From an uncultured Muribaculaceae bacterium (GTDB taxonomy: Bacteria; Bacillota_I; Bacilli_A; RF39; UBA660): DNA of 64,000 bases. The position numbers are program-made. Below, piece after piece: positions 53,301 to 59,300 of this stretch. The DNA lies in assembly GCA_964630225.1 (NCBI GenBank), contig CAZVUK010000001.1, forward strand, positions 32,088 to 96,087. The letters are read 5' to 3'. Position 1 is the stretch's first letter. Every line of letters begins with the position of its first letter.

Positions 53301-56300
53301 CTGAAGAGCATCAAACTCATTATCATCATCTAAAAGTTCAAATCTTTTTAAATAAATCATAATATCCCCTAACTACAACTTAATTATATCAAAAGATTCT
53401 TGCAATTATAAGATAATAATGATATATTATAGAGGCATTTATTACTATGATTACTATTAATCATGGCGGAAGGAGTTAAAATGAAAGAGACTAATCTAAA
53501 ATCAATGGACACCGAAGTAACTTGTGCATGTGGAGAAACGTTTACAGTTAAATCAAATAAAGCAGAATTACATATCGAGGTATGTTCTAAATGTCATCCG
53601 TTCTATACAGGAAAACAAAGTAGAGCTAGTAGTGCTGGTCGTGTTGATAAGTTTAACAAAAAGTATGGTTTTGAAAGCCAAGAAAACTAAGAGTTTAAAA
53701 ACTCTTTTTTATTTTGGATAAAGAAGATATAATAAGGGTGGTGATAAATATGAAGTTAGGTTTTGCAAGTGATCATAGGGGTTATCCCTTAAAGAGAAAA
53801 TTGGTCGAGTATTTTTCTAAAGCTGAAATGGATTGTTTTGATGTTGGAGCCTTTAATGAAGAGAAGTCCGATTATCCTCTTTATGCATTTAAACTAGGTG
53901 AAAAAATTACTTCCAAATCATATGATTTTGGCATAGCAATATGTGGAAGTGGAATAGGCATTTCAATTGCTGCTAATAAGGTAAAAGCTGTCAGAGCTGC
54001 CAAGGTGGATAGCGTTGACGATGCTCGTTATGCTAGAATTGACAACGATGCTAACGTAATCGCTTTTGGAGCAGACACAGAGTTTGAAAAGGCGGTCGAC
54101 ATGATACAGACATTTATTAACGTTGAGCGAGAAGATATAGAAAGACACGCACGCCGGATAGCTCAAATAGCTGAATATGAGGAAAATAGAGATGTCCGTT
54201 AAAGTATTTATCTATTTTATCTCAGCAGCAGTGGTCGTTTGGTCATTAGATGCTGTCGATATTAATAGTATCTTTAAAAAGAATAGGTATTGGCAAGCGC
54301 GAGCCTTCTATTTCATTTTAGCTACATCACTAATATATCTTTTAACTAACTTTATTTTCGATTTTTTTCTAAGTAGTAAAATTTGAGGTGAAACATGTAT
54401 AATCGTTATATTTTAAACATTGCCTTAATGGTGGTTACTAGCTTCTTGGTATCGGCCTTTTTAATGCCTTTAATGGTCAAGGTAGCTAATCATATTAAAG
54501 CTATTGATATCCCCCGCAAGAGACACATTCATAAAAAACCGATTGCTAAACTTGGTGGTCTTGGTATCTTCTTGGCTTTTATTTTAGCCTATATGCTCTT
54601 TGGAACAAGTAGTACGAGAATGAACGCGATACTTCTTGGAAGCTTTATTATTATCCTTACTGGTTTAGTTGACGATATTAATTCAATCAGGGCTTCACAT
54701 AAATTAATTGGTCAAATAGTATCAGCACTAATTATAATGTTATACGGAAATATCCTTCTTCAAGATGTGGGATTGTTTGGCTATACTATGCACTTCGGTT
54801 TATGGGCTTATCCCATTACCTTAATATTTATTATAGCGTGCATCAATATAATTAACTTGATCGATGGACTAGATGGTTTAAGCGGTGGAATATCATCGAT
54901 CTTTTATTTAACAATTGGTGTCATTTCGATGATTCAGTTTCGTTTTGGAACGTTAGAATTAATATTAACATTCATTATGCTTGGCGCAACGCTCGGCTTT
55001 CTGACATTTAATTTCTATCCCGCAAAAATCTTTGCCGGTGATGCCGGAGCTATGTTTATGGGCTACATGATTGCCGTTATCTCATTGCTCGGTTTTAAGG
55101 GAGCACTACTTTCCTCTCTTGCTGTACCACTGATGGTATTAGCTATTCCTATTCTCGATACCGGCTTTGCAATTGTAAGACGACTAGTACGTAGGCAACC
55201 AGTATTTGAAGCAGATAAAGATCATTTGCATCACCAATTCTTAAAAATGCATTTTTCTCAAAGGAGAACAGTTCTTACTATATACGCTATCAACATTTTA
55301 TTCTCGATAGCATCTATTTTAATGATTGTTAAAAGTAGAAAACTTGGATTAATTATGTACGTTTTACTGTTTGTAATACTTGTATGGTTAGTAAAATATA
55401 CGAGCATAATATTTCGTAAAGAAGAAGATGACGATGCTTAATTTTATTCTATATGATGACAATATTAGTTTCCTAAAAGAACTGGATAAAATTATAACAA
55501 CTTATCTGATGAACTTAGATATTGAATACGAAATTCATAAATATAATAAATGTGATCAAAATATGAAAAAGATTATCATCGATGATCTTCCTAATAAAAT
55601 ATACTTTTTAGATATAGAAACTAAAGATGAGTCGGGTCTTGATATCTTTAGAATGATAAGAGAGACCCAAGGAGATTGGCACTCTCTTGTTTTAATTGTA
55701 ACTAATCATAATGAATATAAATATGAAGCCCTTGGCAATAGGTTATATTTATTTGATTTCATCAACAAATTAGATGCCTTTAAAGAAAACGTAAGAACAG
55801 CTCTAGATAGGATTGTTAAGATATATGCTACAGATAGTCAGTGTATAAAGATAAAGAAAGATTCTAATCTTTACAAAATATCATTTAGAGACATAGTTAG
55901 CTTAAATAAACAAAAAGGTGTGAACAAGCTAATTATTAAAACAAAGTATGAAGATATAGAAATAAACTCTAGTTTAAAAAATATAGAAAAATTATTAAAC
56001 GATGATTTTTTAAAAGTTAGTTCAAGCAACATAGTAAATAAGATGCATATATATCGTTTTGATAAAATTAATAATAAAATTATATTTGATGATATGAGTG
56101 AAACGGTTGATATATCTAGAAGAAATAGGAAACGGCTGGAAGACTTATGATAATTTCTCATCTAATATCATTGCTAATAGGTCAAGCAGTATTTATCTAT
56201 ATTACCAAAGTGACTCTAAAAGTTAGAATCAGTAATAATAGACTGTTTTTATCATTGTTAATTGCTAGTTTATTATTCTTTATTAGTTATGGAAGAGAAC

Positions 56301-59300
56301 CATTATTTTCTTGTGTAATGTTTTTAACAATACCACTATCACTTATGATAAATTATAAATTAAGTCTTCGAGGCAGTATATATGCTTCTCTTTTTCTCTT
56401 TTTTATAATAGTAATGATTGAAACGATTATGTTTATGGTGCCATTTTTTGCTACTAATCTAAAAATAATAAGAGCTAATCCGTGGATCTTTCTTTTTATT
56501 AATTTGCTTGTCTATTTGATAGCGTTATCTATCTTAAACAATATATATTTAAAAAGAATATATAAGCGAATGTTAAGTGAAAAAGAAGTCAGTATCCATA
56601 CAATTACTTTTATTATTACTTTAATTATAGCCATATCACTTATATATAATCTCTTTATGCTAAAAACAGTTAACAGTTACGATGTGACAGTTATCAGTTT
56701 GTTATTATTGTTGTTTTTATTTATGCTCTTCATCTTTAGGATGATTAAATATTATGAACTCAAAGCAACAAATTCAGGTTTATATGAATATGTCACTCAA
56801 TTTGAAGAAATTATTGATAATTATGAATTAAATAATCATGAACACTACAACCAGTTAGCGGCAATTAGAGCAATGACGACAAATAAAAAAGTTAAGGAAT
56901 ATATCGATAGTATTATCAAGACTGAAACTAAAGAGATAAAATCAATAAGTAGGATTCCAAATGGTGGTGTTAAAGGAATTATTACTTATAAATACTTGTA
57001 CTATAAAATAAAGGATATAAAATTTAACATAATTATCGACAAAGAAAGTAAAACGTATTTAAGTAAAATGAAAGTATTAAAAGAAAGATACATAACCAAT
57101 CTTTTGGGGGTATACCTAGATAATGCCTGCGAAGAAGTAGAAAATAGTAGTAAAGAGATAAACCTAGAAATTTATTTTCTTGATAATAATTTAAATATTG
57201 TTATCAGCAACCTAGTCAAAGATCTCACTAAACTAATAAAAACAGGGAGTAAAAATTATTCAACAAAATCTAAACTAAGAGGTAAAGGGCTATATTTAAG
57301 TAAGAAGTTGATTGATCAAAAGTATGGAATAAATTTAAATACTAAAATTATAAATAATTACTATGTTCAGCATATAAAAATAACAAAAGACTAGCGTACG
57401 CTAGTCTTTTATCTAAGCTGGAAAATCTGGTTCTTCGAAGACAAGAAATATGCAGGCTTGCGATGCTGTAGCAAATGCAGCAAGACCAATTACAGTTAGC
57501 AAAGAAAATACTTTATTTTTCATCTTTACCTCCTTTCTCAAACAAGATAAACGTCACTGGATTTACAATAATTGACTGAATAAAAAGAGTGGATAGTATC
57601 ATTTTATCGATATAAGTTATATTAAGTGTAATTAAAAGACATAATATCAAGACAATAATGTTTGATTTGATTTTTAGCTTTTGGCGCTCTTTATCGTCTA
57701 TTTTTCTTCCTTTCTTGCTGATTGCTGGAGCAAAAAAGAGGCTAGACATAATTGATAGAATAATAATAAAAAACATTTGCAAATTGTTACCGACAATCAT
57801 CATTGGCGCAATATTAAATAACAATATCGAAAAGAAAACACATGAAACATTGCCAGGCATATGAACACCGTAAGCATATCGCCGCACGATTGCTACGAGT
57901 AAAAGCAAGAAAATAGTTTCCACGAGCCTTTCTAATAAGAAAGAGATAAAAATAATTAACACTACTTTTGTAATATTAATATAGACTGCTTCGACCCCAT
58001 AGATAATTTTTTTGATAGAGTCATTATCGTAGTTATTATCATTCAGGAATTTTTTTAGGGAATTAAGTAAAGTAGATCTCATTACATCACCAAAAACATT
58101 TTATATATAGATAAACAAATTTATATGGTTTTGAACTAATTGGTCGAAATTATCAAATAAATGGTAAAAAGTTAAGTTACTGTAAACGATGTGGTTGATA
58201 AGGTTTTAAAAAAAGCAACTTATGATTAGACAAAAATTGTAACAAATTAATCTAATATAATTGTACTGGTGATGATATGTTAGGGATAGTAAAATGGTTC
58301 AATAATGATAAAGGTTTTGGTTTCGCTCATACAAAAATAGGAGAAGATGTCTTTATTCACTACAGCAACATTAAAATTGATGGCTATAAATATCTTTCTA
58401 AAAACCAAGTTATAAATTTTGATATTTGCGCTGGCAACGATGGTTTTTATGCAAAAAATGTTATTGTGGTAAAAGATGTAAATGATTAAAAAATATAGAA
58501 AATAATGCTTCATTGTGCTAATATATTCTATATAGGAGGATACTATGAAAACCATTATCAGAGGAGAAAAAGTTGCAATCACAAAGGCTATCGATGAGTT
58601 TATTAACGAAAAGATAGGGAAATTGGATAAATATTTTGATAATCCAGAAGAAATGACGGCTCACGTCTTAATAAAAATAAGAAAAGATGGACATAAGATC
58701 GAGGTTACTATTCCATCGAAAAAATATATTTTACGTATCGAAGAAAAGAGAGAAGATGTCTATGCCGCTATCGACGTAGCGATAGATAAGCTAGAAAGAC
58801 AAATTATTAAGAATAAAAATAGAATTGAAGATATAAGCCGAGGTAAGGGGCTTAAAAATGATGCCTTTTACTTCGAAGAGTTAGAGACTGTCGAAGAAGA
58901 TGAACACAGAATTGTCAAACGCAAACAGATAGAATTAAAACCAATGAATGAAGAAGAAGCAACCATTCAAATGGAACTTCTTGGACATGAGTTTTATCTA
59001 TTCAAAGATGATGAAACGATGGAAGTTAAATTAGTTTATAAAAGAAAAGAAGGCGGTTACGGTCTAATTGAAATGTAGGACGAAAGTCCTTTTTCAATGA
59101 TTGATACAAATAACTTTAAATAAAGTCTAATATTTGATAAAATAATACTTACGGGAGATGAATATATGAACATATTTAAAAAACTTTTCGATCACGAATA
59201 TAAAGAGTTACAGAAGTTTGGACTTCTTGCAGACAAGATTGAAGCACTCGATGAAGAATATCAAAAACTTAGTGATTATGAACTTTCAGCAAAGACTGAA

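Follow-up and report, generated by a model that had tools for sequence, protein, structure and literature searches.

Does an uncultured bacterium with a seemingly full set of agr-type quorum-sensing genes also encode the peptide signal on which such a system depends? This question is raised by a 64,000-nucleotide stretch of contig CAZVUK010000001.1 (assembly GCA_964630225.1, positions 32,088 to 96,087; termed here the window), within which an initial annotation described a complete agr-type locus whose autoinducer gene, agrD, appeared to be disrupted by a shift of reading frame. The analysis reported here indicates instead that agrD is read without interruption and that the locus is very probably an intact agr-type cyclic-peptide quorum-sensing system organized as two convergent transcription units.

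Much of the earlier description is borne out. A list of open reading frames (ORFs), together with profile matches, places the four agr-type genes where they had been reported; translation, profiles and structure matches agree that they form a complete system (AgrB, AgrD, an AgrC-like kinase and a LytTR regulator); and the ORF list, a terminator scan and folding support the convergence of agrAC and agrBD upon a single hairpin. The features of the locus, in window coordinates, are as follows.

54395-55441, plus strand: glycosyltransferase family 4 gene (GT4; MraY/WecA/TagO-like); PF00953, E 4.7e-37
55428-56150, plus strand: agrA-like response regulator with receiver and LytTR domains; PF04397, E 1.1e-12
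56147-57394, plus strand: agrC-like sensor histidine kinase; PF14501 (HATPase_c_5, GHKL), E 2.7e-6
57382-57413, both strands: hairpin, putative shared terminator; terminator scan and fold energies
57413-57523, minus strand: agrD, intact 36-codon autoinducing-peptide precursor; direct translation
57513-58082, minus strand: agrB, polytopic membrane cysteine endopeptidase/cyclase predicted to process AgrD; PF04647, E 1e-25
57529-57536, minus strand: Shine-Dalgarno sequence of agrD, AAAGGAGG, within the 3' end of agrB
58138-58173, minus strand: candidate AgrA (LytTR) binding site 5' of agrB, proposed on the basis of conservation

The agrD reading frame

When the minus strand is translated from 57523 (the ATG) to 57413, a single frame with no indel yields the peptide MKNKVFSLLTVIGLAAFATASQACIFLVFEEPDFPA followed by a TAG stop; the mechanically compiled ORF list also gives an intact ORF at 57413-57541. 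The peptide consists of a leader (MKNKVFSLLTVIGLAAFATASQA), a ring segment, CIFLV, whose codons occupy 57454-57440 (with that of Cys24 at 57454-57452), and a tail, FEEPDFPA. This is exactly the peptide that had been thought to require restoration by an indel. The Cys-less 37-mer with a basic tail, which the initial annotation took to be the in-frame product, belongs to the frame displaced by one base, which reads ...LVLLHLLQHRKPAYFLSSKNQIFQLR and contains three stops within its first 11 codons; evidently the supposed disruption was a one-base reading slip around codon 13. The proposal that CIFLV followed by FEEPDFPA is the likely end of an autoinducer precursor does stand.

Several features mark this ORF as agrD. 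It is a small ORF immediately after agrB on the same strand, and its position is the same in four related contigs (L008, L009, L012 and L013; relatives are referred to here by such contig designations). Its ATG (57523-57521) overlaps the end of agrB (stop codon TAA, 57515-57513) and is preceded, 5 nucleotides upstream, by the strong Shine-Dalgarno sequence given above; an AAGGAG motif likewise lies 5' of agrD in L008, L012 and L013. A cysteine and four further ring residues followed by an acidic, proline-containing tail (C24-IFLV-FEEPDFPA) are kept in four species. The leader has a basic MKNK start and a hydrophobic core and ends, immediately ahead of Cys24, with small residues at -3 and -1 (S-Q-A); in these respects it looks like a Sec-type signal peptide. 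An upstream TTG start, which would extend the ORF to 42 residues (from 57541), was considered and rejected: the Shine-Dalgarno sequence directly precedes the ATG at 57523, and the extension is not found in the relatives.

The same frame recurs wherever the gene can be compared. The exact AgrB protein occurs on eight contigs--one NCBI contig and seven metagenome assemblies from different runs--and on the six contigs that reach beyond agrB the in-frame agrD DNA is the same, apart from a single A36V change in one of them. Three more divergent relatives each have a 36-codon agrD at the equivalent place.

L008, AgrB 52% identical to that of the window: AgrD MKNKLYSMLAMIGLIAYNSAASSCIFLVFEEPEFPN
L012, AgrB about 42% identical: AgrD MKNLLLSAVAVLGLAVYQSASTACIFLFFDEPEFPA
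L013, AgrB 35% identical: AgrD MKKYLNSFLLALGLFVYHSASQACIFLVFEEPDFPQ

Together with the window, these define the core C-I-F-L-[V/F]-F-[E/D]-E-P-[D/E]-F-P, in which the ring of L012 reads CIFLF; in L009 the ring is CYWFL, followed by TDEP. The leader diverges, with 9-13 non-synonymous codons per 19 in each sequence pair; between the window and L013, core codons 20-35 comprise 9 identical, 7 synonymous and no non-synonymous codons. Conservation of the Cys-less frame among orthologues, which would have pointed to the 37-mer as the true product, is not what these comparisons reveal: the orthologues keep the Cys-containing frame under purifying selection, and in each of the four species stops interrupt both of the other frames.

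Such a small gene is easily passed over. Gene callers left agrD uncalled on contigs L001-L008 and L013; only in L012 (GCA_964650275.1) is it called, as a 36-residue protein with no family assigned. A word-indexed protein search with the 42-residue agrD ORF found no match among 5.8 billion clusters. A degenerate DNA search of JGI metagenomes for CIFLVFEEP returned two contigs, both of which were rejected as chance occurrences of CIFFVFEEP lying antisense in phage-like genes with no agr locus. Within a genome collection, an AgrB-only scan found no relative, a 24-sequence alignment was too diverse to furnish search patterns, and a 4-sequence alignment found only L009.

AgrB, AgrC and AgrA

AgrB matches PF04647 over residues 10-171 with a score of 90.6 bits (cut-off 23). 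A library of 1.8 billion proteins contains 804 homologues at E<=1e-3, only 3 of which are at least 35% identical; a sequence search of the PDB gave no match at E<=1. Across an alignment of 24 relatives, three residues never vary (G72, C81 and P119), and at least 90% of the sequences have H74. The protein has multiple hydrophobic segments, and H74 and C81 lie within the sequence GVHMPGNVSC at a spacing of i/i+7; the catalytic pair of Staphylococcus aureus AgrB, His77 and Cys84, is also seven residues apart.

As a separate observation, the region around AgrB residues 119-126 (57705-57728, minus strand) distinguishes a small clade: the window and its closest homologues, P0002, P0007 and P0008, share the pattern AP-A-[IT]-[ST]-KKGR, where most other homologues have APADTxKRP, so that the Asp is lost in the window clade.

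For the kinase, the best NCBIfam model is staphylococcal AgrC, which is matched end to end (14-409 versus 7-413/414; E 4.6e-13), and the best solved structure is likewise that of S. aureus AgrC. Some 6-7 hydrophobic segments within residues 1-205 form a polytopic N-terminal sensor; they are followed by an H-box at about residue 231, where NHEHYNQL aligns with RHDYVNIL of S. aureus (PDB 4bxi and 6e52), and by N- and G-box motifs. For the regulator, the best solved-structure match to the LytTR domain is the LytTR domain of S. aureus AgrA, and the receiver residues D10/D11, D62 (within FLDIE), T92 and K114 are present and are kept in L013 and L009. (An alternative agrA start, at 55434, is the one used by gene callers on the metagenome contigs.)

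Two probable, convergent transcription units

The start of agrA overlaps the stop of the GT4 gene, and the start of agrC overlaps the stop of agrA. Because of these overlapping stop and start codons, agrA and agrC are probably co-transcribed with GT4, a housekeeping cell-envelope gene, which probably leaves agrBD alone for autoinduction. Both overlaps are also found in L001-L005 and L013; in L009 the two genes are 142 bp apart.

Between the units lies the hairpin at 57382-57413, whose first position is the final base of the agrD stop codon and which includes the agrC stop codon. Its folding energy is -18.4 kcal/mol (z -5.4) for the minus strand and -14.5 kcal/mol (z -4.3) for the plus strand, values that none of 200 shuffled sequences matched, and on the minus strand, serving agrBD, it has a good U-tract. 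At the equivalent place L008 has a hairpin with another sequence, and L012 and L013 have palindromes; the element is thus conserved in position and not in sequence.

An alignment of the region upstream of agrB from four relatives reveals one clear footprint, AACTTTTnnCCA, which is conserved in all four. In three of the four it is followed, 21 bp further on, by a second half-site, [A/C]CC[A/T]A[A/T][A/T], across a spacer that has diverged. Within the window the resulting element (58138-58173), a direct repeat whose period is 21 bp, reads AACTTTTT-ACCATTT-N14-ACCAATT; nowhere else in the 64 kb does the pair ACCATTT-N14-ACCAATT (58138-58165) occur at zero mismatches, and its second copy ends 2 nucleotides before a possible -35 element (TTCAAA). 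Because LytTR regulators bind direct repeats with a 21-bp period, this repeat is suggested as a candidate AgrA operator. A search with the AgrA-box consensus of S. aureus ([TA][AC][CA]GTTN[AG][TG]) yielded one antisense copy 5' of agrB, AAAGTTAAG, which was set aside; it is not conserved in L008 or L012.

A proposed signaling cycle

From these elements a signaling cycle may be proposed. Translation of agrB and agrD would be coupled through the overlap of the agrD ATG with the end of agrB and through the strong Shine-Dalgarno sequence. By analogy with S. aureus and Listeria, AgrB (acting through His74 and Cys81) would remove FEEPDFPA from the 36-residue AgrD and would join Val28 to the thiol of Cys24, creating a five-residue CIFLV thiolactone, after which a cut of the signal-peptidase type would free the cyclic peptide. 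Because the leader resembles a Sec-type signal peptide, with small residues right before the cysteine, the mature signal is most likely a cyclic pentapeptide with a very short tail or none, like those of Listeria and Lactobacillus plantarum. Outside the cell this peptide would bind the polytopic sensor of AgrC, whose H-box histidine would phosphorylate Asp62 of AgrA; phosphorylated AgrA would then activate the agrBD promoter via the 21-bp-period repeat at 58138-58173, along with a presumed downstream regulon. Receptor and regulator would be made alongside a housekeeping envelope gene rather than being autoinduced.

Conservation and divergence of the locus

The agr locus is flanked by L31, rpiB and GT4 on one side and by csp, hpf and secA on the other, and L009, L012 and L013 conserve the arrangement secA-hpf-csp-agrB-agrD, convergent with agrC-agrA-GT4; L008 does so in part. 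SecA is 86% identical to that of the window in L013 and 72% in L009, which comes from a Hadza-gut metagenome-assembled genome. Because the arrangement is conserved at the same site across lineages, the agr locus is taken to be old and vertically inherited within its lineage, not a mobile insertion. The window is chromosomal, and the locus is placed about 50 kb from the replication origin because rnpA/yidC, dnaA/dnaN and a switch in GC skew occur at about 8 kb.

The proteins encoded at this conserved site have diverged to very different degrees between the window and L013.

SecA (housekeeping): 86% identity
GT4 (housekeeping): 75% identity
AgrA: 55% identity
AgrC: 42% identity over the whole protein, 35% over the sensor
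AgrB: 35% identity

The AgrD core, ASQACIFLVFEEPDFP, is identical in both. The staphylococcal peptide is hypervariable, changing in concert with AgrB and with the AgrC sensor; a conserved peptide core accompanied by strongly diverged AgrB and AgrC is the reverse of that pattern and is mildly unusual. The ring CIFLV appears to be common to at least three species-level lineages of uncultured Bacilli (L012 having CIFLF). It is conceivable, though rather doubtful, that this reflects a shared, inter-species 'public' signal within digester or gut communities, where the peptide would mediate cross-talk and not cross-inhibition; a simpler alternative is that, in an AT-rich genome, membrane proteins evolve faster. 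One source run, SRR8925755, belongs to a digestate survey of full-scale biogas plants (PMC7842101), and neighbouring run accessions supplied the relatives' contigs (SRR8925781 is close to SRR89257xx/88xx, and SRR29243438 to SRR29243442).

Alternative readings

A number of observations weigh against an intact quorum-sensing system. The organism is uncultured, and the locus is known here from its sequence alone. The receiver domain of AgrA is weak, at 21 bits against a Pfam gathering score of 30. Because the kinase and AgrB score far under the NCBIfam equivalog cut-offs (with AgrC at 49 bits for NF046015, an equivalog-level match requiring 500), these two are best seen as distant family members and not as orthologues of the staphylococcal proteins. 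AgrD has no Pfam match at all, and the AgrD model TIGR04223 gives it 12 bits against a cut-off of 19 (E 0.19). Short, divergent peptides commonly score under such cut-offs; because this one does, its assignment to the family rests on its position and on its ring and tail features. In regard to transcription, a sigma-70 promoter scan gave 33 matches versus 28 +/- 6 in shuffled sequence, which is uninformative, and found no canonical sigma-70 consensus for agrB; because the scan did no better than the shuffles, the operon structure proposed above is drawn from gene overlaps only. On the plus strand, that is, on the agrAC side, the U-tract of the hairpin is short (UUUUAU). Finally, the candidate AgrA box is a pattern defined post hoc; in L013 its second half-site is poor, and on the sense strand the box fails to match the AgrA consensus of S. 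aureus.

What else might such a locus be? One alternative, which seems improbable, is that AgrBD and agrA-agrC do not form a cognate circuit: the two-component system would belong to the GT4 envelope operon and sense something else, and the AgrBD peptide would be sensed elsewhere or act as an effector, as for clostridial loci that consist of agrBD only (PMC8534292, PMC12312760). It is with GT4, and not with agrBD, that agrA and agrC are coupled; and a near-invariant peptide core would be unexpected if that peptide alone were bound by the AgrC sensor, in which the window and L013 share only 35% identity. Set against this, the four genes are adjacent and in the same convergent layout in five lineages, a layout that persists even where the peptide is different (CYWFL, in L009) and where a gap of 142 bp separates GT4 from agrA. 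Moreover, the best full-length model for the kinase is AgrC, and a pairing of HPK10 kinase with LytTR regulator is typical of peptide sensing.

It is more improbable still that the locus is a decaying remnant, with genes that are intact merely by chance and selection for signaling gone. The low identities of AgrB (35%), AgrC (42%) and AgrA (55%) in comparison with those of SecA (86%) and GT4 (75%) lend themselves to such a view, but the four ORFs are full length and retain their catalytic residues in every lineage sampled, the agrD core has undergone 7 synonymous and no non-synonymous changes, and conservation extends to the Shine-Dalgarno sequence and to the terminator.

A one-base frameshift in agrD has a negligible probability, and, since the frame is intact, neither of the explanations offered for it (a signal-negative, receptor-positive cheater or an assembly indel) applies: its sole support is that the adjacent frame does read as described above, as against an unbroken frame from the ATG to a canonical C-terminus, three stops early in the alternative frame, the same agrD DNA in six independent assemblies and the same 36-codon frame in three divergent species. 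The claim of a broken autoinducer being wrong, neither follow-up sequencing nor an interpretation in terms of cheater biology is warranted.

Relation to known agr systems

An intact agr-type system in this lineage can be compared with several that are well characterized. In Listeria monocytogenes, AgrD reads ...CFMFV-YEP...; as there, the ring predicted here is a five-residue hydrophobic thiolactone (jointly, C-[IF]-[FM]-[LF]-V) that is followed by an aromatic residue and then E-P (here CIFLV-FEEP). The two systems share the same four protein families, and the mature Listeria peptide is tail-less or has a one-residue tail (CFMFV or A-CFMFV; PMC4916163, PMC12312760), as is proposed for the window. 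Tail-less pentapeptides are on record as autoinducing peptides (AIPs) both for Listeria, in the form of the CFMFV thiolactone, and for L. plantarum (PMC4916163), and tail-less AIPs are described as rearranging (PMC12312760). Unlike the window, with its two convergent units in which regulator precedes kinase, Listeria has a single agrBDCA operon in which kinase precedes regulator. The C-terminal tail of AgrD is here only 8 residues long, and the proteins are distant, with no PDB match (for AgrB) and no match at the level of an NCBIfam equivalog.

In systems of the Clostridium acetobutylicum type, as here, genes for production and reception occupy separate units, peptides are tail-less and no RNAIII-like effector is evident (PMC10301443, PMC12312760). 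There, however, the agrBD and agrCA operons are successive; in the window they converge on a shared hairpin, with agrA before agrC. The C. acetobutylicum ring has six residues as opposed to five, and the receptor unit is here fused to the GT4 cell-envelope gene.

With S. aureus the locus shares the i/i+7 spacing of the AgrB His and Cys, an AgrD with Cys plus four residues and an acidic, Pro-containing tail, an alignable AgrC H-box and a LytTR-type AgrA, as well as the best solved-structure matches. It differs in that the single, autoinduced P2 operon of S. aureus is replaced by two convergent units, agrBD on the minus strand and agrAC on the plus strand, in that the leader resembles a signal peptide, and in that different species share a conserved peptide core rather than having a hypervariable one. 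No Rfam RNA was found in or adjoining the agr locus, and no divergent RNAIII was identified. The agr2 locus of C. difficile (R20291) is likewise a complete four-gene locus, with a gene order opposite to that of S. aureus (PMC8534292); its ring starts with Ser (NSA[SSWVA]; PMC12312760), unlike the Cys found here.

Thus, although the layout does differ from staphylococcal agrBDCA, as the initial annotation pointed out, the variation is of a kind already known: separate agrBD and agrCA operons, tail-less AIPs and the absence of RNAIII have already been described for clostridia and Listeria (PMC12312760, PMC10301443). The convergent layout, the placement of regulator before kinase and the fusion to a GT4 gene constitute a minor architectural variant. 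The locus opens no new question; it is a clean example of agr from an uncultured, low-GC Bacilli lineage of anaerobic digesters, and it adds one data point on the diversity of agr architecture, on tail-less hydrophobic pentapeptide signals and on the co-evolution of peptide and machinery.

Other features of the window

In the neighbourhood of the origin (6344-10645), the minus strand carries yidC and rnpA and the plus strand dnaA and dnaN; the sign of the GC skew and the gene orientation both switch near position 8000.

A genuine one-base indel polymorphism occurs 4 kb from the agr genes, in a homopolymer (53291-53297) within a gene for an AAA_15/AAA_21-type ATPase (52510-53359, minus strand). 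The window and L002-L004, with a run of 7 A, have a split gene; with 8 A, as in L001 and L005, the gene is intact and encodes 283 aa. Population variation, slippage resembling phase variation or an assembly error at the homopolymer could account for the difference.

In L009 the gap between secA and hpf is about 1.1 kb (2849-3972 of that contig), versus 87 bp in the window; it holds a 97-aa ORF, for which a transposase fragment is only a guess. Just downstream of secA, on the plus strand of the window (62267-63718), is a gene for a 483-aa bifunctional aminoglycoside-resistance protein that passes the NCBIfam cut-offs both for AAC(6')-Ie (356 versus 340 bits) and for APH(2'')-Ia/If/Ih (533 versus 475 bits); a GNAT gene adjoins it at 61830-62267.

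Two RNA elements were also detected: an L31-Firmicutes ribosomal-protein leader at 53445-53475, just 5' of the L31 gene, which scores 33.4 bits against a gathering score of 33.3, and a bacterial small signal recognition particle (SRP) RNA at 16800-16890, which scores 63.6 bits.

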